This document shows, in pieces, positions 1,754 through 46,246 of a stretch of DNA of 46,246 bases (within the stretch, counting starts at the first letter, position 1; every line of letters starts with the position of its first letter). A program made the position numbers and the translations under genes. The notes below the pieces were generated by a model that was not told where the DNA came from, ran no database searches, and saw only the letters and a list, made by a program, of their open reading frames with translations. This DNA is from Pseudomonadota bacterium. Lineage in GTDB: Bacteria > Pseudomonadota > Alphaproteobacteria > UBA2136 > UBA6156. Location of the stretch: NCBI GenBank assembly GCA_009927255.1, contig RFNJ01000125.1:1-46246 (forward strand), in the 5' to 3' direction.

Positions 1754-1754
1754 G

Positions 1755-18067: not shown

Positions 18068-18083
18068 GTGGTTGGTTTGTTGG

Positions 18084-18846: not shown

Positions 18847-18920
18847 GGTGCCGGCTGAGAGGATTGAACTCCCGACCTTCGGTTTACAAAACCGCTGCAC
18901 TACCGCTGTGCTAAGCCGGC
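18846..18920 (-). tRNA. tRNA-Thr (anticodon UGU)
   Basis: The reverse complement folds as a cloverleaf: acceptor GCCGGCT/AGCCGGC, anticodon loop TTTGTAA, T-loop GGTTCAATCC-like (GAGTTCAATCC), encoded CCA. 75 nt. Confidence 0.85.
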
Positions 18921-19018
18921 GACCGAGGAGGTTTTGGCATATTTTATTTAGTTTGGCTAGATATCTTGCTTGGAGATGTGCGTTGGGATTAGCATGGAGA
19001 GGTTAAGTCGCTTTTTAC

Positions 19019-31412: not shown

Positions 31413-31418
31413 GGGCGC

Positions 31419-32093
31419 ATGGTATCTGCGCTGACGCAAATCTACAATCACTTGATGGCGTTGGCGCTGCCGAATAGCTGCCCGTGTTGTCATGCAGCGC
31501 TTTCGCCCCACCACGGCGGTGGTTTGTGCCCACCGTGCTATGCCAAGCTGCCGTGGTGGAATATGGGGATGATTCTGGCGCCGCAGTTGCATCGTTTGAT
31601 TGATAGTTATGCGGCGCCGTGCCTTTATGAATTACCGCTGCGGCCGCTGTTGTTGCAGTTTAAGTTTTCGGATGCGACGCATCTTTCGGCAATTTTGGCG
31701 CGTTTATTGTTGCCGGTGGTGCCGCGTCATTTACCCAATAGCTTGATTATTCCGGTGCCGAGCCATGCGGCGCGGTTGCGTTGGCGTACATATAGCCACA
31801 CTGTGCTGTTGGCGCGGCAGCTGAGCCAGTTGAGTGGTATTCCCCAGCATTCTGTGGCGTTGCGGCGGGTTCAGGGTGGTTTGCCGCAGGCAGAACTGAC
31901 GCGGGCGCAGCGGCTTAAGCTGAGTGGCAGTAGTTTTGCGGCTAACCCGTTGATTATTCATGGAAATAATATCATTTTGATTGATGATATTTTGACTACG
32001 GGTACGACCGCCAAGGCTTGTACGTTGGCGCTGAAGCGAGCGGGAGCGGCACAGGTGCATGTGCGGACGGTTGCTTATACGCGGCCAGAGTAG
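31419..32093 (+). CDS. comF: ComF family phosphoribosyltransferase-domain protein
   Basis: N-terminal CPCC...CPPC zinc-finger-like pairs and the PRPP motif IILIDDILTTGTT. The start is uncertain: 31419 or the tracked 31359. Confidence 0.7.
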   Translation: MVSALTQIYNHLMALALPNSCPCCHAALSPHHGGGLCPPCYAKLPWWNMGMILAPQLHRLIDSYAAPCLYELPLRPLLLQFKFSDATHLSAILARLLLPVVPRHLPNSLIIPVPSHAARLRWRTYSHTVLLARQLSQLSGIPQHSVALRRVQGGLPQAELTRAQRLKLSGSSFAANPLIIHGNNIILIDDILTTGTTAKACTLALKRAGAAQVHVRTVAYTRPE

Positions 32094-32096
32094 AGG

Positions 32097-32126
32097 CATA
32101 AAAACAGGCGGCCTTGCGGCCGCCTG
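32097..32126 (-). terminator. Terminator hairpin between the convergent comF and micro-ORF genes
   Basis: caggcggcc-ttgc-ggccgcctg stem. On the - strand it is followed by ttttta. Confidence 0.6.
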
Positions 32127-32141
32127 CCTCCTGTTAGAAGT

Positions 32142-32249
32142 TTACTGGAAATACACCCACCCACGCTGGAAAGCGTAGGCCCACCAAGCCAAATACCCAC
32201 CGATGATGAGCGTTGGGAGAATGGGGAGGGAGTATTTGTAGAAGCGCAT
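32142..32249 (-). CDS. 35-aa hydrophobic micro-protein MRFYKYSLPILPTLIIGGYLAWWAYAFQRGWVYFQ
   Basis: AGGAG SD 7 nt upstream of the ATG, a single predicted TM and a terminator directly downstream. It is in a different frame from the tracked 107-aa ORF 32134..32457, which looks compositional. Confidence 0.4.
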   Translation of the reverse strand: MRFYKYSLPILPTLIIGGYLAWWAYAFQRGWVYFQ

Positions 32250-32512
32250 TTTCTGCTCCTTTGAGTTTTTCGGGCATGATTGCCTTACGCAAACGCAACG
32301 ACGCAAGATGGTACGCAACTACATGGTTTATTATGGGGCGCGAGAGGGTGTTTTGCGAGGGGGCGCTTATGGGGTGGGCAGCGATGGTGGGGGAGGGGGC
32401 TTGCTTGTGCGTGCGTTGAGGGGCAGCATGGAGGTAAGAAAAAAAGCCTCTTGTCACTCACGTACTTTGAGTGCTAAGGTGGGCGCATAACAAGACAAGG
32501 TGTTTGTATTTC

Positions 32513-35041
32513 ATGGCGCGTCATCCTGCTCCTGCTAAGGCTTCGGCTAACCAACTGCCGGTTTTGCCGTTGCGCAATATTGTGGTGTTTCCCCACATGA
32601 TTGTGCCGCTGTTTGTGGGCCGCGAGAAGAGTGTGAAGGCGCTGGAAGAGGTGATGAACCTGAATAAGCAAATTATTTTGGTGACCCAGCGTGATGAAGC
32701 CCAAGATGAGCCGGATGTGGAGGGGGTTTATCGGGTGGGGTGTTTGGGGAATGTGCTGCAAATGCTGAAGCTGCCGGATGGTACGGTGAAGGTTTTGGTG
32801 GAGGGGCAAACCCGCGTGCGGCTGACCGATGTGAAAGATATTGGCACGATGTTTATGGCCAATGCCGAGACATTTTTGGAGCGCCAAGGTGAAGAAGAAG
32901 AGCTGGATGCGTTGGTGCGCACGGTGGTGGCGGAATTTGAGGAATATGTGAAATTGAATAAAAAAATTCCGCCAGAGGTTTTGGTGAGCTTGGCGGCGAT
33001 TGAGGAGCCGACCCGTTTGGCTGATACCATTGCCAGCCACTTGAACTTGAAAATTGACCAAAAGCAGGAGCTTTTGGAGCTGGACTTGGTGGATGATCGC
33101 TTGGAGAAGCTTTACCAATTTATGGAGAATGAGATTGGCTTGCTGCAGGTGGAGCGGAAGATTAGGACGCGGGTGAAGAAGCAGATGGAGAAGAGCCAGC
33201 GCGAATATTATTTGAATGAGCAGATGAAGGCGATTCAGAAAGAGCTGGGTGATGGCGAAGAAGGCGATTTTGCTGATTATGACAAGAAACTGAAAGAGCT
33301 GAAGCTGAGCAAGGAAGCCAAGGAGAAGGCGGAGACGGAGCTGAAGAAGCTGCGGATGATGAGCCCCATGAGTGCAGAAGCAACGGTGGTGCGGAATTAT
33401 TTGGATGTGCTGTTTGGTTTGCCGTGGGGCAAAAAGACCAAGCTGAAGAAAGACTTGGCGTTTGCCGAAAAAGTGCTGGATGAAGACCACTTTGGCTTGG
33501 AAAAAGTGAAAGAGCGGATTGTGGAATATTTGGCCGTGCAGCAGCGGGTGGATAAGCTGAAAGGGCCGATTTTGTGTTTGGTGGGGCCTCCTGGTGTGGG
33601 GAAAACCAGTTTGGCTGAGAGCATTGCCAAGGCGACGGGGCGCACCTATGTGCGGATGGCGTTGGGTGGCGTGCGTGATGAGGCTGAGATTCGGGGCCAC
33701 CGCCGTACTTATATTGGAGCTTTGCCGGGCAAGATTATTCAGAACTTAAAAAAGACTGGCAGCATGAACCCGCTGTTTTTGCTGGATGAGATTGATAAGC
33801 TTGGGCAGGATTTTAGGGGTGATCCATCTTCGGCGTTGTTGGAAGTGCTTGATCCGGCGCAGAACCATACGTTCCAAGACCATTATTTGGAGCTGGATTT
33901 TGATCTTTCCGACGTGCTGTTTATTTGTACGAGCAATAGCTTGAATATCCCGCCGGCGTTGCGGGATCGGATGGAGATTATTCGGCTAGCTGGTTATACT
34001 GAAGAGGAAAAAGTTGAGATTGCGATGCGCCACCTGATGCCCAAGGCGATGGAGGAAAATGGCTTGAAGAAAGGCGAAGTGACGATTGGGGCGGAAGTGG
34101 TGCGGGATATTATCCGCTACTATACCCGTGAGGCTGGTGTGCGGAGCCTTAAGCGCAGCATTGATGCGTTGTGCCGTAAGGCGGTGAAGGAGATTTTGAC
34201 CGCGGGGGCGAAGGCGAATCGGGTTGCTAAAGGTGATTCTAAGAAGGTTGCAAAGAGTGTGGCGAAAGGTGCCGTTAAAAGTGAAGGTAGGGCGAGTAAA
34301 GCTGGTGCGATTACGGTGACGGCGAAGAATTTGGACCATTATCTTGGCGTGCGGCAGTTTACTTATGGTGTGAAGGATGCTGAAGACCAGATTGGGGTGG
34401 TGACAGGCTTGGCGTGGACCGAAGTTGGTGGTGATATTCTGCCGATTGAGGCCACGGTGCTGGATGGTAAGGGTAAGCTTTTGACCACGGGTAAGTTGGG
34501 TGAGGTGATGACCGAGAGCATTCAGGCGGCGCAGAGCTATGTGCGGCGGCGTGCTGATGAGATGAAGATTCCGCATAATTTTTATGAGAAGAAGGATATT
34601 CATATTCACGTGCCTGACGGAGCGACACCGAAAGATGGCCCCAGTGCTGGCCTGGCGATGGTGACGGCGTTGGTGAGTGTGCTGACCGGCATTGCGGTGC
34701 GCAATGATATTGCGATGACGGGTGAGGTATCACTTCGTGGCCGTGCGATGCAGATTGGTGGCCTGAAAGAAAAGCTGCTGGCGGCGTTGCGGGCGGGGAT
34801 TACCACGGTGTTTATTCCGCGCGAGAATGTGAAAGACTTGGCGGAAATGCCGAAGGTTATTATGGATGGGCTGAAGATTATTCCGGTGGATAATGTGGAT
34901 GAAGTGCTGGTGCAGGCGCTGGTGCGGAATCCGTTTGGGGGCAAAGGTGGTGCCCAAAAACCAAGGATGAAGCTGAAGCCGAAAGTTGCCAAAGTGAAGC
35001 CAGTAGCACGTGGACGTGAGCGCGTGGGTGTGCGCGTGTAG
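32513..35041 (+). CDS. lon: ATP-dependent protease Lon
   Basis: LPVLPLRNIVVFPHMIVPLFVGREKS N-domain, Walker A GPPGVGKTS, Walker B LLDEIDK, and protease Ser in PKDGPSAG. The ATG at 32513 gives the canonical N-terminus. Confidence 0.95.
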   Translation: MARHPAPAKASANQLPVLPLRNIVVFPHMIVPLFVGREKSVKALEEVMNLNKQIILVTQRDEAQDEPDVEGVYRVGCLGNVLQMLKLPDGTVKVLVEGQTRVRLTDVKDIGTMFMANAETFLERQGEEEELDALVRTVVAEFEEYVKLNKKIPPEVLVSLAAIEEPTRLADTIASHLNLKIDQKQELLELDLVDDRLEKLYQFMENEIGLLQVERKIRTRVKKQMEKSQREYYLNEQMKAIQKELGDGEEGDFADYDKKLKELKLSKEAKEKAETELKKLRMMSPMSAEATVVRNYLDVLFGLPWGKKTKLKKDLAFAEKVLDEDHFGLEKVKERIVEYLAVQQRVDKLKGPILCLVGPPGVGKTSLAESIAKATGRTYVRMALGGVRDEAEIRGHRRTYIGALPGKIIQNLKKTGSMNPLFLLDEIDKLGQDFRGDPSSALLEVLDPAQNHTFQDHYLELDFDLSDVLFICTSNSLNIPPALRDRMEIIRLAGYTEEEKVEIAMRHLMPKAMEENGLKKGEVTIGAEVVRDIIRYYTREAGVRSLKRSIDALCRKAVKEILTAGAKANRVAKGDSKKVAKSVAKGAVKSEGRASKAGAITVTAKNLDHYLGVRQFTYGVKDAEDQIGVVTGLAWTEVGGDILPIEATVLDGKGKLLTTGKLGEVMTESIQAAQSYVRRRADEMKIPHNFYEKKDIHIHVPDGATPKDGPSAGLAMVTALVSVLTGIAVRNDIAMTGEVSLRGRAMQIGGLKEKLLAALRAGITTVFIPRENVKDLAEMPKVIMDGLKIIPVDNVDEVLVQALVRNPFGGKGGAQKPRMKLKPKVAKVKPVARGRERVGVRV

Positions 35042-35060
35042 GTGGCTTTAATGTGGGGAG

Positions 35061-35090
35061 AAAAAATCCGGCCTGAGCCGGATTTTTTTT
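35061..35090 (+). terminator. Rho-independent terminator after lon
   Basis: aaaaaatccggc-ctga-gccggatttttt is a perfect stem with a T-run. Its symmetry means it could act in both directions. Confidence 0.8.
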
Positions 35091-35239
35091 GTGAAGTTGA
35101 GAAGATGGTGGAGGCTTTTGATTCAAGTTAATGAAAAGATAAGATAAGATGTTTGTGTGGTGATTTTGGGTGATGCGTGAGAACGAAAAAATGGCGGTTG
35201 GGCAAGAAAAAAAACGTGACAAATTTTTGGTGCGCGTGC

Positions 35240-35268
35240 TTGACAGTGCGGAAATCCGGCCATCTAAT
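35240..35268 (+). promoter_or_regulatory. Sigma70-like promoter candidate for hupB
   Basis: TTGACA (35240-35245), a 17-nt spacer, then TCTAAT (35263-35268), about 85 nt upstream of the hupB ATG. Confidence 0.4.
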
Positions 35269-35353
35269 TGCGCTAACCCACGACTAGCCAAGCTGGCTGT
35301 GGAGTTCCGGATGCTCATATCCGGCACATGAACCAAGGTAAAAGGAACCACCC

Positions 35354-35626
35354 ATGAACAAACAAGAGCTGATTAGCAAAATTGCTGATTCTGCCAAGTG
35401 CACCAAGACCGAAGCTGGTAACGTTGTTGACAGCTTTATTGACGTGATCACCAAGACCTTGAAGAAGGGCGGCGAAGTGCGTCTGACTGGCTTTGGCACG
35501 TTCTGCACCACCAAGCGCAAGGCCACCACGGGCCGTAACCCCCGCACTGGCGCGCCAATTAAGATTGCCGCTAGCACCCAGCCGAAATTCCGTGCTGGTA
35601 AGAGCCTGCGCGACAGCGTGAACTAA
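35354..35626 (+). CDS. hupB: DNA-binding protein HU
   Basis: 90 aa. MNKQELISKIA...GFGTF....R.A..GRNPRTG..I.I.A...P.F.AGK is the canonical HU signature. Confidence 0.95.
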   Translation: MNKQELISKIADSAKCTKTEAGNVVDSFIDVITKTLKKGGEVRLTGFGTFCTTKRKATTGRNPRTGAPIKIAASTQPKFRAGKSLRDSVN

Positions 35627-35647
35627 GCCGTTTTTTGGTTTAGGAAG

Positions 35648-35670
35648 GCCGCCTTTGGGCGGCTTTTTTG
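35648..35670 (+). terminator. Rho-independent terminator after hupB
   Basis: gccgcc-tttg-ggcggc stem followed by tttttt. Confidence 0.75.
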
Positions 35671-35879
35671 GATTTTTAGGGGTATTTTAAATGTTTTGAG
35701 GTGGTTTATTTATTTTGAGGTGATTTGGGTGGTAAATGGGTGGGTGGAAGCGGGTTTTGGGGTGGGATTTTAGGATTTATTTAAGGTGGATTTGGTATTT
35801 ATTTGGGGGTGATTTGGGATTTTTTAGCATGTGGGGGGAGTGGAGTTGGGGTGGGGACGTGGCTGGTTTGGGGTGGAAA

Positions 35880-35955
35880 TGGTGGGCGACGAGAGACTCG
35901 AACTCCCGACCCTCTCCGTGTAAAGGAGACGCTCTACCAACTGAGCTAGTCGCCC
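35880..35955 (-). tRNA. tRNA-Val (anticodon UAC)
   Basis: Reverse-complement cloverleaf: acceptor GGGCGAC/GTCGCCC, anticodon loop TTTACAC, T-loop GGTTCGAGTC-like, encoded CCA. 76 nt. Confidence 0.85.
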
Positions 35956-35980
35956 GGGGATATTCTACTAGCCGGGTCGC

Positions 35981-36061
35981 TTTTTAAGTTTTTCTGGCCC
36001 TGCGCTGCGCACATACTTAACTTGTATGCTTACGCTGCTCGGTCTGCAAAAAACTTAAAAA
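35981..36061. repeat. Long inverted repeat between tRNA-Val and tRNA-Asp
   Basis: 13-bp arms tttttaagttttt (35981-35993) and aaaaacttaaaaa (36049-36061) enclose a GC-rich core. The core contains gcgctgcgc, shared with the other repeat family, and an inner hairpin catac..gtatg. Confidence 0.6.
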
Positions 36062-36100
36062 TCGCCGCCGTCTAGCGAATTTGTTTACTTTTCAATGTTA

Positions 36101-36177
36101 TGGCGGAAGCGATGGGACTCGAACCCACGACCCTCGCCGTGACAAGGCGATACTCTAACCAACTGAGCTACGCCTCC
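36101..36177 (-). tRNA. tRNA-Asp (anticodon GUC)
   Basis: Reverse-complement cloverleaf: acceptor GGAGGCG/CGCTTCC, anticodon loop TTGTCAC, T-loop GGTTCGAGTCC, encoded CCA. 77 nt. Confidence 0.85.
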
Positions 36178-36281
36178 GCGCGTAACGGTTGGGTTATAGG
36201 GCGGGTTGGGGGGTGGGTCAAGGGGATAAATCAGTATACATATAGATGATAACTGGCAAGGGGCAACAGGCAAGAGGGGGA

Positions 36282-36447
36282 GCTTCGCTGCGCCGGAGTT
36301 GGTGTGGTGCTTTGTGGAGAGGGCAGGGCCGTTGCTGGGGAGAGGGGAAGACCGCTTAGGTTCAGGGTTTAGGGATTCAGGGACGGGCGCTTCGCTGCGC
36401 CGGAGGTGGTGTGGTGTTTGGTGGATGGGGTGGGGCCGTTGCTGGGG
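36282..36447. repeat. Two ~58-bp direct repeats, 107 bp apart
   Basis: 36282-36340 and 36389-36447 share gcttcgctgcgccggag.tggtgtggtg.ttg.tgga..gg..gggccgttgctgggg, with about 7 mismatches. Confidence 0.7.
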
Positions 36448-36544
36448 GGCAGGGTGTTAGGATGATAGGATTTGAGGTGGCTGAGGGGCGTGACAGGGGG
36501 TTGGGGGTGGGGTATCTTTTGGTGGTTTTGGAGGGAGGTTTGGG

Positions 36545-36748
36545 ATGGGGCGGCGGTTTAGTTATGGGTTTTTGGGGTTGAGTTTGCTGTGCTTGTTGTT
36601 GTTTTTGGGGGCGGAGGTTTGGCCTTTGTATCGGCAGCCGTTGGCGGCTTTGGCGGCGGTTGTTGAGGGGATGGTGTTTATAATGTTGGGTTTTGTGTTG
36701 TGGCGGGTGCGGTGGGGTGGGGGGGATGGAGGTTTAGGGGGAAAATGA
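36545..36748 (+). CDS. Small two-TM hypothetical membrane protein (67 aa)
   Basis: GGAGGGAGG SD upstream and two hydrophobic helices. The stop codon lies inside a strong terminator stem. It could still be a compositional ORF in G+T-rich DNA. Confidence 0.35.
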   Translation: MGRRFSYGFLGLSLLCLLLFLGAEVWPLYRQPLAALAAVVEGMVFIMLGFVLWRVRWGGGDGGLGGK

Positions 36749-36783
36749 CCAAGCCGCCTTTTTGGGGCGGCTTGGTCATTTTT
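36745..36783. terminator. Bidirectional terminator hairpin
   Basis: A 13-14-bp stem (a)tgaccaagccgcc / ggcggcttggtca(t) with loop tttttgg, followed by ttttt on the + strand. It lies between convergent genes. Confidence 0.75.
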
Positions 36784-36795
36784 CGTGGGGGTGAT

Positions 36796-37872
36796 TTAGC
36801 CAGCGGCTTCGGTTTGGTGCTTTTGGAGCACTTGGGCGAAGCCGACGGCGGTGAGGGTGAGCACCACCAGCGCGGTGAGGCTGGTGAGGCTGAAGGAGAC
36901 TGCTGGGTTGGCGAGTGTTATCAGCCCGAACATCACCATGATATTGGTGGTGCCAATCACGATGGGGGTGTGGGCTTTGGCCAGCTGAACCATCAGCGGC
37001 ATCAGCAGATTGATGAGCAGGTTGAAGGCCAGAAAATAGACCAGCAGTTGTACGTGGTAGGCGGGACTGGTGAGCAGTTGGGCCACCGGTGCCGGATAGA
37101 CTATCCAGGCGCCACCAGCGAAGCATAGCCAGCCATAGCCAGCAAGTGCCGTAAGGGCGATGGCATAGGCAGGCCAACGGGGTGGGCCTGCTGTGGTATC
37201 GCCGTAGACGATATTTTGCACTTTAGGAAAATGGCCCATGGTGAAAAATACGCCAGCCCATAATACGAGATGGCCGATGAGTGAGATAGCAAAGGCCAGC
37301 GGGAGCAAGGGATTTTGGAGCAATGACCCGATACCGGCGAAGGTGAGGTTGCCGGTTTGCTGGCTGTTGACCAAAATGATGAAGGTGCTGGTACCGCCGA
37401 TGAGTGCCGCAAGCCAGATAAGCTGCTGGCGGATTTGATTTTTGGTGAAGCGGTTGGTCATGGTAAGCAGGGTGAAGAGGTAGACAGTTGCGAGATTGCA
37501 GCATTCGATAATTGCCGGAGCCAATGGCCCCGCCAAGCTGACGGTGAGCGGCATGGCTTGTGAGATAAACAAGCCGGTGGTGCAACCGGTGAGCAGCGCG
37601 CCATACCAAAAGCGTGGTTGGCGAGCGAAGTGCAGCAGGGGGTGGTCTTGCCGTGTGCGGCTAAGGATGTGGAATAGCGCCATGATGAGGGCGAGGTTCC
37701 AGAGCATTAACAGCCAGAGTGGGCCAGTTTTAAGGGTGTGTTCAGGGGTTGTGATGAGCTGGGCGAGGGCAGGGTAGTTGCCTGCGGCAAAGCCGTTACC
37801 CAGCCAGATAAGCAGGTGGGCGATGAGGCTGACCAGCATGGAGAGCCAGAAGGTGGAAGGGAGAGTTTGCAT
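36796..37872 (-). CDS. Polytopic integral membrane protein (about 10 TM), family not recognised
   Basis: 358-aa ORF that is hydrophobic throughout, with a GGAG SD upstream. Confidence 0.6.
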   Translation of the reverse strand: MQTLPSTFWLSMLVSLIAHLLIWLGNGFAAGNYPALAQLITTPEHTLKTGPLWLLMLWNLALIMALFHILSRTRQDHPLLHFARQPRFWYGALLTGCTTGLFISQAMPLTVSLAGPLAPAIIECCNLATVYLFTLLTMTNRFTKNQIRQQLIWLAALIGGTSTFIILVNSQQTGNLTFAGIGSLLQNPLLPLAFAISLIGHLVLWAGVFFTMGHFPKVQNIVYGDTTAGPPRWPAYAIALTALAGYGWLCFAGGAWIVYPAPVAQLLTSPAYHVQLLVYFLAFNLLINLLMPLMVQLAKAHTPIVIGTTNIMVMFGLITLANPAVSFSLTSLTALVVLTLTAVGFAQVLQKHQTEAAG

Positions 37873-37966
37873 GGGTTTTACTCCGTGGTTACTGCGACTT
37901 TAGCAGGGAAAGAGTGGAAGATGGAAGTACGTGGAGTGTTTAGCATGGGGGGTGGACTAAGGCAAT

Positions 37967-38008
37967 AAGCCGCCATCTTTTTGAAGGATGGCGGCTTGGA
38001 CATTTTTC
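37967..38008. terminator. Hairpin downstream of the pyrE-like gene
   Basis: 11-bp stem aagccgccatc / gatggcggctt. The T-run (cattttt) is only on the + strand, so assigning it as the pyrE terminator is uncertain. Confidence 0.4.
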
Positions 38009-38019
38009 GTGGGGGTGGG

Positions 38020-38613
38020 TTAGGCGGCTTTTTTGAGGCCGAGTTGGGTGGCGGTGAAGATGGGCATCAGCTCTACGCCGATGGCGGCGAGGGCTTGTTG
38101 GGCGCCCATTTCTCTATCGAGGATGCAGATGGCGTGGGTGAGATTGCAGCCGGGGACTTCGGCCCTGGCTGCTTGGATTGCCCTGACCATGCTGCCGCCG
38201 CTGGTGGCGACGTCTTCGAAGAGGACGGCGCGGCCGTCGGTTCCGAGCCAGCCTTCGACCTGCTTGCCTTCGCCGTGGCCTTTCTTCTCGGGGCGGATGT
38301 AGAAGAGCTTGAGGGTATCGGCTAAGTCATAGTCGAAGTCAATTACCGTGGAGCCGACAGCGCCGAGAGTGGTCATACCACCCGTAGGCACCGCACCGAG
38401 GTAGCGGGTGTTGGGGGGTAGCATTTCGGTGATGGTTTCGCTGAGTACTTTGAGTGCCTCTGGAAGGGTGGTGAGGAGGCGGAGGTCGGCGTAGTAGTCG
38501 CCTTCGCCAATGACTTTACCGCTGGCGAGGGTTCGCGTTTCACCGGCTTTGAGCACGGTGATGCTGTGTTCAAAGAGAGCGTTACGGAGATATTTCTTTG
38601 CGTAGGGGGTCAT
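38020..38613 (-). CDS. pyrE: Orotate phosphoribosyltransferase-like type I PRTase
   Basis: 197 aa. The N-terminal segment (LASGK....YYADLR) resembles the OPRTase F.L.SG..S.YY.D.R pattern. PRPP loop is AVLFEDVATSGGS. Confidence 0.55.
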   Translation of the reverse strand: MTPYAKKYLRNALFEHSITVLKAGETRTLASGKVIGEGDYYADLRLLTTLPEALKVLSETITEMLPPNTRYLGAVPTGGMTTLGAVGSTVIDFDYDLADTLKLFYIRPEKKGHGEGKQVEGWLGTDGRAVLFEDVATSGGSMVRAIQAARAEVPGCNLTHAICILDREMGAQQALAAIGVELMPIFTATQLGLKKAA

Positions 38614-38812
38614 GGGAGAGGTTCCTTTGTGAAAGAGGGAGGGAGGTGAGGCGTAGGCTTAGGTGGGGGGCTTTTAGCATGGGGGTGGTGGGAAGGCAAC
38701 ACATGTGGGAGGGAAGTTGGGGGGATTTGAGGGGTTTGTGGCGGGAATAATGGTTTTTTGGGGGTGAGTTGGGGTATGCTGGGGCAGGGCTGAAAGGAGC
38801 CGTTTTGCGCGC

Positions 38813-40507
38813 ATGGATATTGTTGACCTGATGATTGCAGACCGCGTGATTGGCGTGGCGGATTTGCATAATCTGCCCGTGACCGTGCAGAAAGACCCCG
38901 ATGTGCTGATTGAGGCGCTGGGCAAGGCGGGCAAGCTGACGCCCAATCAACAGGCGCGGTATAAGGCGGTGGCGTATGATTTCCCCGTGAAGAATGATGA
39001 TGAGATGGCGAAGTTGACGCCGCATCAGGTGGAGGGTGTTGACCGGGCGTTTTTGCAGTTTTATACGGCTTGTCCGATTGAGTTGGGGCGCAACCAAGTG
39101 ATTTGGGCGGCGGCGGATTTGCCCAACAAGCGTTTGCACAGCGAGATTTTGCTGCGCAACCGCAAGAACAGCCATGTGTTTGTGTGGGCCAGCCCCAAGA
39201 GCATTGAGAGCGCGATTGAGCGGATGAACAAGCGCGAGGGGCATAGCCTGAAATTTTTGGTGGAGAATGCTTATGCGCAGCTGAATGCGGGCAATGATGA
39301 CAGTGTGATTAGTTTGGTGGATGAGATTATCCGCACGGCCTACAAAAACGGGGCGAGTGACTTGCACATTGAGATTTTGAACCGCAAGCCCACGGTGATG
39401 GCGCGGATTGACAACGAATTGGAAGAACTGGTGGCGTTGCCGATGGAAGTTTATGACCGCGTGGTGGGGCGGCTGCGGCACATGGCGGGGGTGAGTGCCG
39501 AGAACTTTAAGAAGCCGCTGTATGGGCGCATGACGTTTGAGTTGAGTAACCGGCAGAGTGTGGATATTCGATACACCACCCAGCCGATTACGTTGGAGAA
39601 TACGGCGAAGATTGCGATGCGGTTTTTGCGGCCTTTTGAGGGGCAGATGGAGACGTTTGGGTATACGGATGAAAATATTGATAAGATTGATAATTTGATG
39701 CGCTTTGAGGAAGGCGTGATTATTTTTGCCGGGCCGACCGGGCAGGGTAAGAGCACGGCGTGCCGCTTGATGATTCGGCGGGGGCAGCGGCCCGGGCAGA
39801 ATGTGATTGCCTATGAGAAGCAGATTGAAGAGCGGATGGATAACGTCATCCAAACCGAAGAGGATTTGGCGGCGGGGGTGAACTTGGAGAGTTTTCTTTA
39901 TGCTGCCTTGGGGCTTGACCCGGATATTTTATATATTGGTGAGGTGCGTAGCCCTGAGGATACGCGCAAGGTGATTGACGCCGGTAACTTGGGGCATTTG
40001 GTGATTACCACCATGCACGCCAATGACAGCTTTATGACGCTTGACCGTTTGCTGCAGCGCGGGGTGCCGCCCGAACTGATTTTTACCAACGTGCGCGGGG
40101 TGGTGAGCCAGCGGTTGGTGCGGCGGTTGTGCAATAAGTGCAAAGTGCCTTACGAACTAGACCAAGCGATGGCGGACAGTATGAATGGCATTCGGGATTT
40201 GGGCATGAAGCGCGGGGATGTGATTTATCGGCCTAACCGCAATGGGTGCGAGTTGTGCCATTACCGTGGGTATTCCGGGCGGATTGCGATGGAGGAAGTT
40301 TTGGAAATGTGGCGGCGGGAGATTAGCCGCAACGTGTGGGCGGGCAACCGTTTGCGGCCCGACTGGGTGGATGTGGTGCGTGAGCAGGCACGGCTGGCGG
40401 GGATGAGTGATATGCTGACGCAGGGTTTGCGGCATATGAAAAATGGTGTGACGTCGCTTGACGAATTGGAGCGGTTCTTCAGTGCAGACCTTGAAACCCT
40501 CCGTTAG
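38813..40507 (+). CDS. GspE/PilB-family type II secretion / type IV pilus assembly ATPase
   Basis: ASDLHIE, Walker A GPTGQGKST, Walker B-like DPDILYIGEVR, His box GHLVITTMHAN, tetracysteine CNKC...CELC, and one N-terminal T2SSE_N-like segment. Confidence 0.85.
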   Translation: MDIVDLMIADRVIGVADLHNLPVTVQKDPDVLIEALGKAGKLTPNQQARYKAVAYDFPVKNDDEMAKLTPHQVEGVDRAFLQFYTACPIELGRNQVIWAAADLPNKRLHSEILLRNRKNSHVFVWASPKSIESAIERMNKREGHSLKFLVENAYAQLNAGNDDSVISLVDEIIRTAYKNGASDLHIEILNRKPTVMARIDNELEELVALPMEVYDRVVGRLRHMAGVSAENFKKPLYGRMTFELSNRQSVDIRYTTQPITLENTAKIAMRFLRPFEGQMETFGYTDENIDKIDNLMRFEEGVIIFAGPTGQGKSTACRLMIRRGQRPGQNVIAYEKQIEERMDNVIQTEEDLAAGVNLESFLYAALGLDPDILYIGEVRSPEDTRKVIDAGNLGHLVITTMHANDSFMTLDRLLQRGVPPELIFTNVRGVVSQRLVRRLCNKCKVPYELDQAMADSMNGIRDLGMKRGDVIYRPNRNGCELCHYRGYSGRIAMEEVLEMWRREISRNVWAGNRLRPDWVDVVREQARLAGMSDMLTQGLRHMKNGVTSLDELERFFSADLETLR

Positions 40508-40541
40508 GCCAAGCAATAGATTGGCGAGTTTTGGCGCCAGT

Positions 40542-41609
40542 ATGGCGGGTAGCGTGGCGGGCAGTGGTATGGATGCGCGGGATCGGGAGCGGTTCTTTTT
40601 CTTTATGGCGATGATGATGAAGACCGGGCAGACCACCAGCGATGCTTTGAAGGCGGTGGCCAAGGCATTTCGGGCCGAAAAAAATGACAGTGTGGCCAAT
40701 GCAGTGGTGGGGTTGGCGCAGAAAGTGGCGCAGGGTAAGCCCTTAAGCCAAGCGATGTTGGCAGAGCGGGGGATGTTTAGTGAGTTGCATCGGGCGGCGA
40801 TTTTGGCGGGTGAGGCGAGCAACAATATGCAGAAGAGTTTTGATATTCTGCGCATTTTGGAGGACAAGAAAATTAATGCCGGGCGGGCGGGGATGGCGGA
40901 GCTTTTGACGCCGTTGTTGATGCTGTTGCTTTCGCTGGTAAGCATTTTCAATACCGGCCTGAACACCTTGCCGGTGATGGTGAAGTTGCATGAGGCGCAG
41001 GGCAAGGAGAGCGGGATGATTCCGCTGGGGATTATTGCCACTACCAACTTTTTGGCGGGGTATTGGTTTGTGCTGGTGGCGCTGCTGGCGATGGTGGCGG
41101 TGGTGATGTGGAGCATGAATAGTAACCCTGCTGGGCGCACGGTGCTGCACACGTTGCAGCTACAAATTCCGTTTTATGGGCGGTTTTTGATTTACCGCAC
41201 CTATAACCAGATGCTGCTGTATTTTCCTTACCTTTTGGCGAGTGGGGTGAAGCCGAAGCAGTTGATTCCGATTATGGAAAGTTTGGCGACCAACCTGGTA
41301 CTGAAAAAGCGGATTGACCAGTTTAACCATGTGATTACTACGGGGGGGAGCTTGAGTGAGGCGATGGGGCGGGCGGGATTTCCTGAACTGATTGTGACGC
41401 CGGTGAGTGTGGCGGAGAACTATGCGCCGACCACCGGCAACGTGAACGATGTGTTGATTGAGGGGATGCAGCATTCCCATGCGATTTTGGAGCGGATTTT
41501 GAATGATGCGCATAAGACGTTTATTGGCGTGTTTAGTGCGATGCTATGGATTATGGGAGGGGCAGTGATGATGCTGGATATGCTTTCCATTGTGCTTTCA
41601 CAGGCTTAG
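40542..41609 (+). CDS. GspF/PilC-family inner-membrane platform protein
   Basis: Two internally repeated cytoplasmic helical domains (...G.S.S.A.......F.EL......GE.S...) are separated by TM helices, three in total. The start at 40542 avoids overlap with the ATPase gene. Confidence 0.8.
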   Translation: MAGSVAGSGMDARDRERFFFFMAMMMKTGQTTSDALKAVAKAFRAEKNDSVANAVVGLAQKVAQGKPLSQAMLAERGMFSELHRAAILAGEASNNMQKSFDILRILEDKKINAGRAGMAELLTPLLMLLLSLVSIFNTGLNTLPVMVKLHEAQGKESGMIPLGIIATTNFLAGYWFVLVALLAMVAVVMWSMNSNPAGRTVLHTLQLQIPFYGRFLIYRTYNQMLLYFPYLLASGVKPKQLIPIMESLATNLVLKKRIDQFNHVITTGGSLSEAMGRAGFPELIVTPVSVAENYAPTTGNVNDVLIEGMQHSHAILERILNDAHKTFIGVFSAMLWIMGGAVMMLDMLSIVLSQA

Positions 41610-41617
41610 GATGACGT

Positions 41618-42946
41618 ATGTTTGAAATCCCCCCGCCCCTGCAAGACAAATTGAAGCCGCTGGTGGACAAGCTGGAGCCTGCGCTGAAAGTTTGGCGCGA
41701 GCAGGGGTTGCCGGTGGTGCGGCAAGTGGGTGGGCAGGTGTGGGACCAGCTGCGTGCGCTGAGTGGCGAGATGGCCGAGAAAATGGCCAAGGCGGGGCCG
41801 CAGGGGAGTGTGGGCAATGCATTTAGGCACTTGTGCGTGGTGGGGTTGAATCGCAGCGAACTGCTGCTGCAAGGTGAGAGCCAGAGTGTGTTTGGGGACA
41901 GTTGGCAGGAGCTGGCGGATGAGAGTTTGCGGCGGCATGTGGGGTTGATCTTTTTTGCGCCGCGGGGCTTGGATGGGCGGCCGGTGAACCCGTATCTGTT
42001 TTTGACCGGTGAGCTGGCCAATGCGGTGGCGGATGAGGAGGGGTTGGCGGATACCAATGCGATTCAGTTAGCTGCCAACATGGTGGGGCCGATGCCGCTG
42101 CTGGACTTTTGCCGCATGCCGCCCGCCGAACCGAATACCGTGAATGTGCTGCTGGCGGCGGATGTGTTGTTCCATTGGGACATTAAGGACAACTATGTGC
42201 TGACCACTACGCCGACGACGTGGGTGCGGGATGTGGAGCAGGTGCTGAAGAGTTATCCGCGCACCACCAAAATGGTGATTTACACGCAATGGGACACCGA
42301 TGTGCTGCCGCCGAGTGAGCGGATTAAAATTTTGCGTTTACGCGAGTTGCCTTTGGATACGGCGGTGTGGCTGAACCAGCCGACGTTTCAGGAGAAATAT
42401 GGTTTACATATTTTAGTAGCGGGGATGGTGTTTTTGGGCTTGGTTTTTGCAGGGTTGTGGCTGCAAGGGCGGGGTAACGCGAGTGTGGCGGATGAGTTGC
42501 GGCTGGTGGAGCAGCAGATACCGCGTGGGGGGCAATTTAATGACATTGAGAAGGCGATTGGTGAGCAGGAAAAGATGTTTGCCAAGCGTGAGTTGATGGG
42601 ACTGGTGGTGCGTGATATGGCGCGCGCGGTGGCGAAAAGTGAGATGAAAATTACCAGCTTTGAGGTGAAAGTGGCCGAGCAGAATGAGGTGCCGAAACAA
42701 TACTTGGTGACGATTGATGCCGACGCTGCGGCTTACCAAGGGTGGCTGCAGCAGGAGCCGATTGCAAGGAGTTTGCTGATGAACAGCGCGGTGCTGGATG
42801 CGGTGCGTAAGCCGCCGACACCGAATGGCTTTAAGCTGGAAGGGCTGGTGGATGCGCAGGGGTTGCAGCGGGAATATCGGCGGGTGGCGCCGCGGGTGGC
42901 GGGGAATGAAATTTCACCAACAACTGCTTTGGAGGTGAAGCCATGA
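41618..42946 (+). CDS. Bitopic protein with GspL-like (or fused PilM-PilN-like) architecture
   Basis: A ~260-aa cytoplasmic domain, a single TM (LHILVAGMVFLGLVFAGLWLQ) and a ~150-aa periplasmic domain. It sits immediately after the platform gene. The call rests on architecture only. Confidence 0.45.
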   Translation: MFEIPPPLQDKLKPLVDKLEPALKVWREQGLPVVRQVGGQVWDQLRALSGEMAEKMAKAGPQGSVGNAFRHLCVVGLNRSELLLQGESQSVFGDSWQELADESLRRHVGLIFFAPRGLDGRPVNPYLFLTGELANAVADEEGLADTNAIQLAANMVGPMPLLDFCRMPPAEPNTVNVLLAADVLFHWDIKDNYVLTTTPTTWVRDVEQVLKSYPRTTKMVIYTQWDTDVLPPSERIKILRLRELPLDTAVWLNQPTFQEKYGLHILVAGMVFLGLVFAGLWLQGRGNASVADELRLVEQQIPRGGQFNDIEKAIGEQEKMFAKRELMGLVVRDMARAVAKSEMKITSFEVKVAEQNEVPKQYLVTIDADAAAYQGWLQQEPIARSLLMNSAVLDAVRKPPTPNGFKLEGLVDAQGLQREYRRVAPRVAGNEISPTTALEVKP

Positions 42947-43443
42947 TACGCTTTGCCGTTGGTGCGGGGATGATTATTTTTGCCTTGGTTTTTGGGGTGT
43001 ATCGGTACATGGATTTGAGCAGCCAGCGGGCGGATTTGGAGGCGGCGCTGGAGGAGGCTTATGGCAAGCGTGATGAGGGGAAGGATTTGGTGCAGCGCAT
43101 TCGGGAAATTAAAAAAATTGGCATGGTGGTGGAAGATGCGCAGAAATTTAATATTGAGCGCTTGCTGGATATTGGTGCGCCGGGGATGGAGTGGCGCTTT
43201 GTGGGGCAGCCGCTGGTGCGGGGGAGTAACCGCGCGCTTTATCGTTATACCTACCGGATTTCGGGCCCCACTACTTATGCAGAGAGCCAAGCTTTGCTGG
43301 AGCGGATGGGGCGGTTGCCGGGGTTTGTGGTTTACCGATATTGCTTTAATTGCATTCAGCCTGCGCGGGGTACGCCGGAAGATTTAAAAATGGTGCAGAT
43401 TGAGGGATACCTTTATGGGTACGATGCGGCGACTTTGTATTAG
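42943..43443 (+). CDS. Small bitopic protein with GspM/PilO-like architecture
   Basis: 166 aa with an N-terminal TM (FAVGAGMIIFALVFGVY), a coiled-coil segment and a compact C-terminal domain. ATGA overlap with the upstream gene. Confidence 0.4.
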   Translation: MIRFAVGAGMIIFALVFGVYRYMDLSSQRADLEAALEEAYGKRDEGKDLVQRIREIKKIGMVVEDAQKFNIERLLDIGAPGMEWRFVGQPLVRGSNRALYRYTYRISGPTTYAESQALLERMGRLPGFVVYRYCFNCIQPARGTPEDLKMVQIEGYLYGYDAATLY

Positions 43444-44302
43444 CATTTTGGCGCTGGTTGCCCTTGGTTGGGCGGGCGCGAGCGTGGGGTGGGCCCAAGC
43501 TCCGAGTAATGGGGCAAGTGGCAATGCGCAGCGGTTGCAGTGGCCGCGGACTTTTACCGGGCAGCCGGATTTTGCCTTTACCCGTGAAGAGGCTTTGCAG
43601 GAGGCGAAAAGCCGGGCCAAACGCGAGAATGCTAAGGTTCCAGTTTTGCCAACTTTAGAGGATTTATTGCGTGATGATATTAAATTTGACCCGTTTGGCA
43701 TTAAAAATGAAGAAATAACTGCAACGGTGAGTGGTACCGAAGAGGTGAGTGGGGCGATGGTGCGTGGCAAAAGCTTGATGGATAAGTTGATGGAAAATGT
43801 GGTGGATTTGCCGAAATTTGAGCAGCGGGCGGGCTTGGATTTGGCAGAATTTGAGAACACCTTGCGACAAACATTACAGGCGAGTTTGGAGAGCTGGCAG
43901 CCGCAGATTAAAAATGTTCCGTTGGATGGAGTTTTAGGAGGATTAATTTTGCAGGCGGTGGTGATGTCGCCGAATAAATATGTGATTTTGAACGGAGAAA
44001 GGTATCGGGAAGGGGATGGTTTTAAGGTGCAAATTCCGGTGATGGTGCCGGATAATTGGATTTTGAGTGCTTTGGAAAATAAAATGCCGGATGAAAAATT
44101 AGTTGGGCCGGAATTAATGGAAAATTACCAAACTATTTTTGAGAGTGTGGTGGCGGATTTTGCCCAACAAAGAAATGCAAACCCAATGCTGGGGCAAAAA
44201 ATGATGATTTTGCCGGTGAAACTGGTGCAGATTTTGCCGCGCACGGTGCTGCTTGAGGCGGATGGGAGGCGGTATGAGTTGCAGGTTAAATTTGCGTATT
44301 AA
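43424..44302 (+). CDS. Exported protein with a GspC/PilP HR-domain-like C-terminus
   Basis: Signal peptide MRRLCISILALVALGWAGASVGWAQA. C-terminal VILNGERYREGDGF ... VKLVQILPRTVLLEADGRRYELQV resembles the secretin-binding HR-domain pattern, split by an insert. Start could be 43400, 43415 or 43424. Confidence 0.35.
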   Translation: MRRLCISILALVALGWAGASVGWAQAPSNGASGNAQRLQWPRTFTGQPDFAFTREEALQEAKSRAKRENAKVPVLPTLEDLLRDDIKFDPFGIKNEEITATVSGTEEVSGAMVRGKSLMDKLMENVVDLPKFEQRAGLDLAEFENTLRQTLQASLESWQPQIKNVPLDGVLGGLILQAVVMSPNKYVILNGERYREGDGFKVQIPVMVPDNWILSALENKMPDEKLVGPELMENYQTIFESVVADFAQQRNANPMLGQKMMILPVKLVQILPRTVLLEADGRRYELQVKFAY

Positions 44303-45062
44303 ATTGATTTTGCGGCGCAAACACGGCGCTTGGGGGTTGTGGTGCCAGCGTGGCGCGTTTTCGCCGTTTATGTTTGGGTTGGTGATGGGAGTGACGATTT
44401 TTTCGGCGCTTTCCATGCAGTGGGCGAAGAAGGAATTGGAGCGGTATCAGGCCAAACAGGCGGATGCGGCGCAGCGGCAGGCGCAGGATGTGGCCAAAGC
44501 GATGGAATTTGCAATTTTGACCGAGGGGCAGGATAATTATAGTGAGGAATATACGTTGCAGCGGGCGCGGCAGTTTAGCAGTGCTGCGGCGAAAACGCGT
44601 GGGGAGCAGGATTTTTTATTGGCGACCAAACGTGAGCGCGATAGTGAGCGCTTTGGCCGAAATGATGAGAAAATTGCGATTGCGGCAAGTGATGATACGC
44701 TGTTGCGCAGCCAGGTTTATCGTAGCGGGGATGTGGCCGAGCTGGACAAACTGCGCACCAACAAGGCGAGTGGGGTGGTGGTGTATGATACTTCGGAGGC
44801 GCGGGACCGGCAGATTCGCACCAGTATTCAGCGGCAGGAGGCGTTGGCGGAGCAGATTTATGCTTTTTATGCGGCGGAAATGAAATTCCCGACTTTGGCA
44901 GAATTTACCGAAATGCGGCGGAAATTTGGTTTGCGCGATGTGTGGGGTGACGATTTTGAATATGGCGTTGACCCGGATTTGCAGCAGGGCTTTTTAAGCT
45001 TCACCACACCGTGGGGGTATGTGCATGAGATTAACTTGAGCTTGAAAGAAGGTGCGGAATGA
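44274..45062 (+). CDS. Pseudopilin-like protein A (atypical leader QRG/AFSPF, GspG-like DVWGDDFEY motif)
   Basis: Basic leader ending QRGA, then a ~20-residue hydrophobic helix (FSPFMFGLVMGVTIFSALS). The C-terminal DVWGDDFEY parallels the GspG DPWGNPYQY motif. Start is uncertain: ATG at 44253, 44262 or 44274, or TTG at 44305. Confidence 0.4.
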   Translation: MSCRLNLRIKLILRRKHGAWGLWCQRGAFSPFMFGLVMGVTIFSALSMQWAKKELERYQAKQADAAQRQAQDVAKAMEFAILTEGQDNYSEEYTLQRARQFSSAAAKTRGEQDFLLATKRERDSERFGRNDEKIAIAASDDTLLRSQVYRSGDVAELDKLRTNKASGVVVYDTSEARDRQIRTSIQRQEALAEQIYAFYAAEMKFPTLAEFTEMRRKFGLRDVWGDDFEYGVDPDLQQGFLSFTTPWGYVHEINLSLKEGAE

Positions 45063-45069
45063 TGGCAAG

Positions 45070-45993
45070 ATGGTACTCATGAAAAGCTTGATTGGATTGA
45101 TGTTTGCCCAGCGTGGGGCGATGTTTGGGATGGATGCGCGGGTGGCGTTGGTGATTGCTTCGATTTTGGCGGCGGTGGGCGGCTGGCAGATGATGAGCCG
45201 ATTGGAGAGCACCAAGAGTGAGGCGGCGTTGGCGCATTTGGAAATTATCCGCGATGGCCTTGAAAAACATTATGAAACTGTAGGGATTAGCAAGCTGCCC
45301 GATAGCTTGGATGAGCTGTTTAGAGCCAATTTGATAACTGACCCCAGCGTGCGCAAAGACCCGTGGGGGAATGACTGGGAATATGTGCATGCCAGCGCGC
45401 AGATGAAGCTGGAAGATACGCCGATTAGTGCCCAATATGCGGTGGTTTTTAGCCGTGGCAAAAATGGGGTGAATGACTCGGGTGGGTTTGGCAGCGTTGA
45501 GGAATTTGCCGAGTGGGCGCCGCGCAAAGATGACATTGGCACCAAATATATGAGCCGTGAAGTGGAAAAGCGGCGGTTGGATGAGTATCGGGCGCGGGCG
45601 CAGTTGATTATTGATAAGCTGGAATCGGCGGAATCGGCGGCGTTTTTGGAGGCGCAGAACACCTGCAGCGCGGCCGGGGCGCCGGGGTGGTGCGCCGACC
45701 TTGAGGGCAAGAATTATACGCTGTTTAACTACTACCCGAAGAGTGATGCGGATGACACCACGGGGGCGGTTTATTACAGCGAGAAGGTGCTGAACAAGCG
45801 GGTGTATAGCAGCGGAAATTTGGCGGAAATGCAGCAACTTATGATTGATTTGGGGTTGCCGGCCAGCTATGCGCAGGACCCGTGGGGGCGGGTGTTGATG
45901 ATCAACACCAACATTACCGGGCGGACGGTGCCGCCGTTTTCGGCCAGTTTGTGCTTTAGTGCCGGAGAGAATTGCCTTGCGCGCAAGGAATAA
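45070..45993 (+). CDS. GspG-like pseudopilin B with a ~170-aa C-terminal extension
   Basis: Leader ...FAQRG/AMFGMDARVALVIASILAAVGGW. Then ...AALAHLEIIRDGLEKHY......LPDSLDEL......DPWGNDWEYVH...AVVFSRGKNGVNDSGG parallels the GspG core. A second DPWGR motif lies near the C-terminus. Start could be 45052 (GTG), 45070 or 45079. Confidence 0.6.
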   Translation: MVLMKSLIGLMFAQRGAMFGMDARVALVIASILAAVGGWQMMSRLESTKSEAALAHLEIIRDGLEKHYETVGISKLPDSLDELFRANLITDPSVRKDPWGNDWEYVHASAQMKLEDTPISAQYAVVFSRGKNGVNDSGGFGSVEEFAEWAPRKDDIGTKYMSREVEKRRLDEYRARAQLIIDKLESAESAAFLEAQNTCSAAGAPGWCADLEGKNYTLFNYYPKSDADDTTGAVYYSEKVLNKRVYSSGNLAEMQQLMIDLGLPASYAQDPWGRVLMINTNITGRTVPPFSASLCFSAGENCLARKE

Positions 45994-46246
45994 ATCCTTT
46001 TTAAGACAAAAATTTATGAAGCTGGGTGGGTTGTTGCCGTGGGAAAAAGCCACGGGGGTTAAAAATGATAGTGTTTTGGGGGTGATTCCGCGCCAGAATG
46101 AGGGGTTTTGGTGGGGGATTTTGGGTGTTTTTGGAGTGGTATTTGGTATTTATTTGGATTTTTTTGCGGGTGGATTTGGGGTGGGTTTGGGGCATGGTAT
46201 GGGTGGAGTGACGGTGGTGTTGGGGGTGGTTTTGGCACGCTTGGCG

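Follow-up and report, generated by a model that had tools for sequence, protein, structure and literature searches.

We analyzed a stretch of 46,246 nucleotides, referred to below as the window, which constitutes an entire contig (RFNJ01000125.1) of a metagenome-assembled genome (MAG; GCA_009927255.1, UBA6156 lineage of the Alphaproteobacteria); independent assemblies of the same sequence are shorter. At positions 38813–45993 it holds seven open reading frames (ORF1–ORF7), for which a first-pass annotation made from the sequence alone had proposed a strongly diverged type IV filament machine. Our analysis supports this proposal, and the role suggested for each ORF holds at the level of its evidence. 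The locus almost certainly encodes a functional type IV filament machine. We interpret it as a lineage-specific, strongly diverged form with the architecture of a type II secretion system (T2SS) and with a secretin encoded elsewhere, and we give this reading a probability of roughly 0.6. It is a familiar machine in a new lineage-specific form and not a new kind of system. The cluster comprises eight genes in the window and nine or more in relatives.

The gene order is conserved in related genomes

All seven ORFs are located on the plus strand and are densely packed. The tiny gaps and overlaps described earlier for these co-directional genes, including an ATGA overlap between ORF3 and ORF4, agree with the coordinates of the ORFs translated from the window. 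A scan of one genome per GTDB species recovered 31 loci in related genomes, which carry L0xx labels in the following. In all 24 loci long enough to hold the cluster the order from ORF1 to ORF7 was identical (tblastn with the seven window proteins). These 24 loci belong to uncultured genomes labelled Alphaproteobacteria, and their flanking genes vary: downstream of the cluster, one genome carries a citrate synthase gene and another a gene with a DnaJ domain, and the upstream flanks differ as well. Since the same order recurs in 24 distinct loci with different flanks, ORF1–ORF7 are real genes and not chance ORFs. The persistence of the order between unrelated flanks further indicates a discrete cassette that is selected as a functional unit. 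A scan for promoters and terminators at 38400–46246 gave site counts not above those of shuffled sequence and therefore did not inform on the operon boundaries.

Across the clade ORF1 is 66–90% identical, and ORF3 to ORF6 show identities of 22–66% (tblastn). A collection of 5.8 billion proteins contained 86 homologs of ORF3, and all source names displayed read “hypothetical protein”; the named homologs came from MAGs labelled Alphaproteobacteria or Proteobacteria, with contigs reaching 1.0–1.36 Mb. The expectation that annotation pipelines would call five of the seven components hypothetical proved correct, with ORF3–ORF6 lacking any Pfam or NCBIfam match above cut-off and all displayed public source names of their family members reading “hypothetical protein”. 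We found no account of the system in the literature on the clade (UBA6156 and others), on MarineProteo1 or on small-genome alphaproteobacterial episymbionts with type IV pili.

With five components diverged past sequence recognition and neither minor pseudopilins nor a secretin nearby, the cluster might be taken for the remains of a gsp operon, decaying or no longer functional, in a reduced genome. We consider this very improbable: all ORFs are intact and tightly spaced, their order has persisted although the sequences diverged deeply (to as little as 32% identity in ORF3), the ATPase stays within the identity range given above, every family retains its catalytic motifs and invariant residues, and the AlphaFold2 models of ORF3 and ORF4 are confident.

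ORF1 and ORF2 encode an assembly ATPase and a platform protein

ORF1 (38813–40507, plus strand, 564 aa) encodes an assembly ATPase of the hexameric type that belongs to the GspE/PilB class; it has a tetracysteine motif, and its N-terminal domain weakly resembles MshEN. Every hallmark quoted for it before is found in the translation: ASDLHIE, GPTGQGKST, DPDILYIGEVR, GHLVITTMHAN and CNKC...CELC. Together these motifs read as Walker A, Walker B, Asp-box, His-box and CxxC...CxxC. The match to Pfam T2SSE has an E-value of 1.3e-66. Among the NCBIfam models, ORF1 scored 243 bits against PilB (TIGR02538, cut-off 675) in an end-to-end alignment of residues 4–555 and 238 bits against GspE (TIGR02533, cut-off 630). 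Scores against PDB sequences were 178 bits for GspE, 176.5 for PilB, 85 for BfpD and 64 for PilT. As a Tad or Com ATPase ORF1 stayed far below cut-off, with 22.7 bits against 373 for the TadA/CpaF-type model TIGR03819 and 155.7 against 300 for ComGA. Judged by its sequence, ORF1 is an assembly-type ATPase of the GspE/PilB class that is assignable to neither member. A tblastn search of ORF1 against plasmids gave generic matches only (<32% identity) and no placement. A motif for binding of cyclic di-GMP in the MshEN-like region was considered and dropped; the Pfam match is weak and below cut-off (E = 2.5e-4), and RLGxx is not visible.

ORF2 (40542–41609, plus strand) has an ambiguous start, which may be TTG at 40458, TTG at 40482 or ATG at 40542. 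It passes the cut-off of Pfam T2SSF in two stretches (E = 8.5e-13, 48.8 bits, cut-off 25.2) and has three hydrophobic segments in a hydropathy scan, in agreement with the GspF/PilC platform of two repeats and three transmembrane (TM) segments proposed at first reading. The NCBIfam GspF model (TIGR02120) was matched with E = 4e-29 and 102 bits, missing its cut-off of 424. Among PDB sequences ORF2 matched PilC with E = 4.9e-11 and GspF with E = 3e-3.

ORF3 and ORF4 resemble GspL and PilO at the level of the fold

ORF3 (41618–42946, plus strand) encodes a bitopic GspL-like protein without a match in Pfam, NCBIfam or a PDB profile search. An exhaustive HMMER search of 1.84 billion representatives returned only 27 proteins, all strong or fragment-type matches; because there is no weak tail of remote relatives, ORF3 forms an isolated sequence family. 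The AlphaFold2 model (pLDDT, the per-residue model confidence, 87.9) begins with an N-terminal helix and a cytoplasmic alpha/beta domain; a TM helix then passes into a coiled coil, and the C-terminus forms a periplasmic ferredoxin-like domain. The hydropathy scan placed a single TM segment at residues 262–280. In a Foldseek search against the PDB the top five matches were all cytoplasmic domains of GspL (among them PulL 5tkw, EpsL 1w97 and 1yf5, and GspL 4pht), with E-values of 1e-3 to 1e-2, probabilities of 0.82–0.99 and TM-scores of 0.28–0.36. PilO, matching the C-terminal part, followed next in the ranking, and PilM was absent from the top 50 PDB matches. Since E-values and TM-scores are modest, the match to GspL represents a fold-level resemblance, and it is at this level that the proposed GspL architecture is borne out. 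Residues 1–58 (41618–41790) form an additional N-terminal helix of about 55 residues in the subclade of the window; ORF3 of distant relatives starts at about residue 55–65 of the window protein.

ORF4 (42943–43443, plus strand), which overlaps ORF3 by the ATGA mentioned above, encodes a PilO/GspM-like protein. Its model (pLDDT 89.5) shows an N-terminal TM segment and a 58-residue helix followed by an alpha-beta domain. The top Foldseek matches were PilO structures (3jc8_Oa with E = 1.8e-3, then 2rjz and 5uvr; probability 0.99–1.00), so the GspM/PilO architecture that had been assigned to ORF4 stands as a fold with PilO as the matching partner. The periplasmic domain carries an invariant CxxC (C134, C137) across the family. 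No signal for ORF4 was obtained at the sequence level with Pfam, NCBIfam, a PDB profile search or hhalign against E. coli proteins. Likewise, hhalign comparisons of the local families showed no relationship of ORF4 to the periplasmic part of ORF3 or to ORF5.

ORF5 carries a split HR domain

ORF5 (43424–44302, alternative start 43400, plus strand) encodes an exported protein. The hydropathy scan revealed an N-terminal signal-like segment at residues 4–22 with an AxA-Q site, ending in VGWA/QAP. Next come WPxTFxGQPDFxFTR, a motif conserved in the N-terminal part, a linker that varies, and the HR domain at the C-terminus. Pfam T2SSB, which describes the HR domain of GspB, was matched in two stretches (E = 8e-6, 25.9 bits, cut-off 28.4). 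Between them lies a helical, clade-specific insert of about 55 aa, and after removal of this insert ORF5 aligned to T2SSB in one stretch with 28.9 bits, above the cut-off. This confirms the earlier observation of a C-terminal pattern interrupted by an insert. Natively, T2SSB was matched by 12 of 29 members of the ORF5 family, and no other family recurs; with the insert removed, the match was found in 9 of the 10 members so tested. No PDZ domain was found in ORF5, and hhalign against the single E. coli sequences of GspC, GspB and HofP was negative. The HR domains of GspB, GspC and PilP have one common fold and bind the secretin's N0 domain (PMC9239104).

ORF6 and ORF7 are pilin-like proteins with an unusual leader

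ORF7 (45070–45993, alternative start 45052, plus strand, 307 aa) is related to the major pseudopilin GspG: in 120 aligned columns, residues 13–150 of the family matched residues 6–139 of E. coli GspG (hhalign probability 90.6%, E = 1.3e-6), and the alignment takes in the region of the DPWGN...SxGxDG motif. The corresponding models were missed, with E = 1.2e-3 and 18.9 bits for TIGR01710 (cut-off 88.85) and E = 0.024 and 15.1 bits for Pfam T2SSG (cut-off 21). On these profile comparisons ORF7 is homologous to GspG without qualifying as an equivalog. Its leader ends in QRG and continues with A-M-F-G-M-D, the Asp being aligned with Glu5 of GspG after a one-residue insertion. The C-terminal half (45550–45993) forms an extra domain with a second motif, DPWG-x-L-x-Y, and conserved Cys pairs. 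A weak internal repeat (hhalign probability 54%, E = 1.3e-4) suggests that this half is a diverged repeat of the GspG-like globular part, which would make ORF7 a two-domain pilin.

ORF6 (44274–45062, alternative start 44253, plus strand) encodes a large pilin-like protein of 262 aa without a Pfam or PDB match. Its residues 22–86 aligned with residues 11–73 of the ORF7 family (hhalign probability 87.6%, E = 3.5e-6), and its C-terminal part, which contains the motif D-x-WG-x-x-F-x-Y, with the globular part of ORF7 (probability 51%, E = 1.6e-4), a weak match to the motif of the GspG type. The leader of ORF6 ends in QRGA and is followed by FSPFMFG and a long N-terminal helix, with no acidic residue near position +5. 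In both proteins the hydropathy scan placed a hydrophobic helix behind a short leader, and the Q-x-G-A leader and the N-terminal helix are common to the two. The suggestion that both are pseudopilin-like thus holds for ORF7 by homology to GspG and for ORF6 through the leader and helix it has in common with ORF7. The class III signal peptide G/(F,M)xxxE5 is found in neither; instead, the atypical leader pattern is conserved across the clade.

In more distant relatives only, one or two short pilin paralogs of 181–221 aa are located just upstream of the ATPase gene. Single copies are present in L007 (6478–7065), L028 (6481–7077) and L033 (6389–7018), two copies in L032 (5630–6190 and 6433–6996) and L043 (4564–5124 and 5360–5923). 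Their N-terminus reads Q-x-G-A-[ML]-F-G-[LM]-D-A-R-x-x-L-A-I-F, the same leader as in ORF7, and homology to the ORF7 family is clear (probability 98.9%). At this position the subclade of the window has no short pilin. In some distant relatives we also observed tandem duplications of the large ORF7-type pilin, namely in L033 (13660–14697 and 14716–15756, the second copy being 43% identical to the first), L032 (13319–14278 and about 14326–15312) and L043 (12249–13208 and 13235–14260).

A prepilin peptidase gene follows ORF7

The first-pass annotation had seen no prepilin peptidase and had called the machine minimal or strongly diverged. We found a truncated A24 peptidase gene, ORF8, that starts with an ATG at 46016 on the plus strand, 23 nt past ORF7, and remains open to the contig end at 46246, where the gene is cut after its first 77 codons, just short of the first catalytic-Asp motif (ARLxAxDL). 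The 77 residues matched the N-terminus of the ortholog in L013 (BLASTP, E = 4e-6) and ranked first among 595 six-frame fragments of the window in a search with the hidden Markov model (HMM) of the family (E = 0.0037, compared to 0.87 for the runner-up).

In many loci, a tblastn search with E. coli GspO first revealed an ORF of some 200 aa immediately behind ORF7; with clade sequences as queries, peptidase orthologs were found at this position in 20 loci. They carry the motifs ARLxAxDL...LPxIYT and GGGDxK. Pfam Peptidase_A24 was matched above cut-off by the orthologs of L028 (E = 3e-12), L036 (E = 1e-11) and L030 (E = 6e-10), and confident precomputed matches (E <= 1e-5) exist for those of L042 and L043. 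The protein comprises about 200 aa, with Peptidase_A24 as the sole domain detected. In the subclade of L005, L012 and L023 the peptidase is not located downstream of ORF7, and components of the system can therefore be dispersed.

In the related loci the peptidase gene usually has a J-domain gene behind it; in deeply diverged relatives this gene, for a protein of 181–204 aa with a C-terminal J (DnaJ) domain, lies 3–4 nt past the peptidase (L042 13612–14169, L028 15097–15642, L043 14879–15430, L007 15001–15615). It may be a ninth member of the operon. The description as minimal does not hold, with the operon running on into the A24 peptidase, the J-domain gene in relatives and extra short pilins in distant relatives. 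As the contig ends inside ORF8, the impression of a minimal machine without peptidase was partly an artefact.

The missing secretin and the weight of the alternatives

The earlier statement that neither a secretin nor minor pilins are in view was confirmed for the window by search. Using E. coli GspD and HofQ as tblastn queries (E < 1) we found no secretin in the 46-kb window or within 10 kb on either side of the cluster in any relative, in total 608 kb, made up of the window plus loci from relatives amounting to about 560 kb. No Secretin Pfam appeared in the gene tables of L005, L007, L042 and L043, and PilQ was not detected by tblastn in the window or the related loci. The tip pseudopilins GspH–K were not found either: the window contains no further pilin N-termini, and when ORF6, ORF7 and the short pilins were compared with E. 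coli GspH–K by hhalign, only TM-helix matches resulted. Profile HMMs of the ORF3–ORF7 families yielded nothing meaningful against all PDB sequences. In hhalign comparisons of the families with single E. coli K-12 sequences of GspB, GspC, GspG–M and HofM–P only ORF7 and GspG matched significantly; such single-sequence templates are weak, and the negatives count little.

Several of our observations weigh against a T2SS-like machine with an unlinked secretin. Besides the lack of GspH–K and of a secretin, the latter in the window and in roughly 560 kb of loci from relatives, ORF1 is equidistant from PilB and GspE, and among solved structures ORF2 is closer to PilC than to GspF. GspM structures are absent from the top 50 Foldseek matches of ORF4, which are led by PilO instead. 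The fold matches are weak overall (E about 1e-3, TM-scores 0.28–0.54), and the structure models cover ORF3 and ORF4 alone among ORF3–ORF7. Finally, the pilins are unusually large, and the short upstream pilins of distant relatives resemble major subunits of the type IV pilus type.

Part of this evidence would fit a surface pilus similar to the type IVa pilus (T4aP), used for adhesion, attachment to a host or prey, or DNA uptake, whose fibre exits through a secretin encoded elsewhere. PilO is the best fold match of ORF4, PilC the best solved relative of ORF2, and ORF1 aligns end to end with the PilB model, marginally above GspE. The one or two short pilin genes directly upstream of the ATPase gene have the layout typical of major-pilin genes. 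Moreover, contigs bearing the cluster reach about 1.0–1.4 Mb, and the genomes are small if these contigs represent most of each; in other bacteria with small genomes, such pili serve for contact with the host. We nevertheless regard a surface pilus as possible rather than probable. No gene for a second, PilT-like ATPase of the T2SSE family was found in the annotated or ORF-scanned flanks of the six loci tested (L005, L007, L028, L033, L042, L043). ORF3 has the fused GspL fold and does not correspond to separate PilM and PilN, the globular domain of the pilin is of the GspG type with a DPWGN motif, and the short upstream pilin is absent from the subclade of the window.

The observed absence of a secretin could also be taken literally. 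In this case the clade would have no secretin, and the filament would stay in the periplasm or cross the outer membrane by a different conduit. This would be in line with the lack of a secretin near the cluster in any of the 24 genomes and in the window, and with the clade-specific helical insert and the conserved N-terminal motif of ORF5. We consider such a machine unlikely. Non-linkage is weak evidence, as the peptidase is also unlinked in one subclade, and the HR domain binds the N0 domain of secretins wherever it has been studied (PMC9239104). Equally improbable in our view is its most specific version, a secretin-free cassette of E-F-L-M-C-pilin-pilin-peptidase-J-domain composition in which ORF5 and the large two-domain pilins form or engage another outer-membrane conduit. 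If true, this would be an offshoot of T2SS and type IV pili with a new route across the outer membrane, and it might be the host- or prey-contact organelle of a lineage whose cluster-bearing contigs measure about 1 Mb.

We return to a machine of T2SS-like architecture with a secretin encoded at another site. A secretin partner is argued for by the HR domain of ORF5. The dispersal seen for the peptidase shows that the missing gene may simply be located elsewhere, and we think it probable that the genome contains one. Well-studied T2SSs can have scattered genes as well, for example in Legionella. The T2SS-like traits are the GspL-type fusion fold, the GspG-type pilin domain, the HR domain of the GspB/GspC type and the lack of a second ATPase in the tested flanks; PilO-like ORF4, PilC-like ORF2 and the short upstream pilins of relatives are T4aP-like traits. 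As to the task of the machine, protein secretion has about an even chance when set against adhesion or uptake together, and we slightly favour secretion in the T2SS mode over a surface fibre.

Comparison with known filament systems

With the T2SS of Proteobacteria (Gsp/Eps/Pul/Xcp) the locus has in common a GspE-class ATPase with a tetracysteine motif, a GspF platform with two repeats and three TM segments, a bitopic protein resembling cytoplasmic GspL in its fold and, next to it, a small bitopic partner, a protein with an HR domain, a pilin homologous to GspG that carries DPWGN, an A24 peptidase and the lack of a second ATPase gene in the cluster. It differs in lacking a secretin, GspH–K, GspS and GspA/B, and in its gene order, which is E-F-L-M-C-pilin-pilin-O here and C-D-E-F-G-H-I-J-K-L-M-O in the T2SS. 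Here sequence comparison does not reveal the analogues of L, M and C, the insert of about 55 aa divides the HR domain, and no PDZ or coiled-coil domain was seen in ORF5. The pilins, with 262–307 aa, carry the leader Q-x-G-A-M-F-G-M-D instead of G-F-T-L-x-E, the peptidase of about 200 aa shows only the Peptidase_A24 domain, and every NCBIfam equivalog cut-off is missed widely.

Likenesses to the T4aP (PilBCMNOPQ/PilD) are the full-length alignment of the ATPase with PilB, the PilC-like platform, the PilO fold of ORF4, the PilP-like HR domain in ORF5 and the genes for short pilins that distant relatives carry upstream of the ATPase. In contrast to the T4aP, a fused GspL-like protein replaces separate PilM and PilN, no PilQ or PilT/U was seen in the window and the flanks searched, ORF5 is no lipoprotein and bears an AxA signal of the Sec type, and the canonical signature G/F(M)-x-x-x-E5 is missing from the pilins. 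Because the equivalog cut-offs failed and the canonical pilin signature as well as GspH–K are lacking, we class the system neither as a canonical T2SS nor as a canonical T4aP.

The mitochondrial T2SS (miT2SS; Horvathova et al. 2021, PMC8134430) is likewise a pared-down T2SS derivative tied to the alphaproteobacterial lineage, with GspC, GspL and GspM undetectable by sequence. It keeps a truncated GspD and is devoid of GspO and of the N1E domain of GspE (PMC8134430), whereas the locus described here has a full-length ATPase and an A24 peptidase and no secretin was seen. A link between the two is speculation.

Base composition and other features of the window

The strand asymmetry of the window is extreme (G 16322, C 9686, A 9175, T 11063). 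The GC skew of the plus strand amounts to +0.28 to +0.41 over genes of either orientation (1–19000 and 32000–46246), and even the PhaC gene on the minus strand shows a plus-strand skew of +0.37. An exception is the region of 19–32 kb, from ClpX to a 307-aa ORF at 30669–31592, with values of -0.20 to +0.13. Orthologous loci of relatives have a skew near 0, which makes the skew a peculiarity of the genome of the window. It is not an assembly artefact, since independent assemblies carry the same sequence at 99.3–100% protein identity.

Overlapping the real plus-strand genes we noticed long antisense ORFs of 331–423 aa (38582–39853, 40157–41152 and 45031–46053, all on the minus strand). Their translations are of low complexity and rich in proline, histidine and arginine, and they represent a trap for gene callers. 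Evidently they are a by-product of the G-rich, C-poor coding strand. At some distance from the cluster, an ORF with a solute-binding domain (3373–4266, plus strand; Pfam SBP_bac_3, E = 7e-21) is located inside the dcw cluster of cell-division and cell-wall genes, between the FtsI gene and the genes for FtsW, FtsQ and FtsA (neighboring ORFs at 1856–3310 and 4353–5441).

Proposed mechanism and implications

In the mechanism we propose, the A24 peptidase would cut the short basic leader from ORF6, ORF7 and the short upstream pilins of relatives. The ATPase (ORF1) would dock onto the cytoplasmic domain of ORF3 and onto ORF2 and drive the insertion of pilins into a periplasmic pilus or pseudopilus. 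The periplasmic domains of ORF3 and ORF4 together with the HR domain of ORF5 would link the platform to the outer-membrane secretin encoded elsewhere. The filament would then either push folded proteins out, as in the T2SS mode, or protrude from the surface as a short fibre.

T2SSs are common in Alphaproteobacteria (PMC10128026). What is surprising is how far the components have diverged and how odd the pilin leader is, rather than that such a system is present. Across the clade automated annotation sees only an ATPase, a platform protein and hypothetical proteins, and the profiles built here provide a handle for finding the system in metagenomes. A further result is the definition of Q-x-G-A-M-F-G-M-D-A-R, an unusual leader of pilins that occurs together with a minimal A24 peptidase. 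Should complete genomes of the clade turn out to have no secretin, the system would offer a case for testing how a filament functions without a secretin in a diderm. More generally, the cluster illustrates how far accessory components of a type IV filament machine, here the pilins and the analogues of L, M and C, can drift past sequence recognition while fold, topology and gene order persist.

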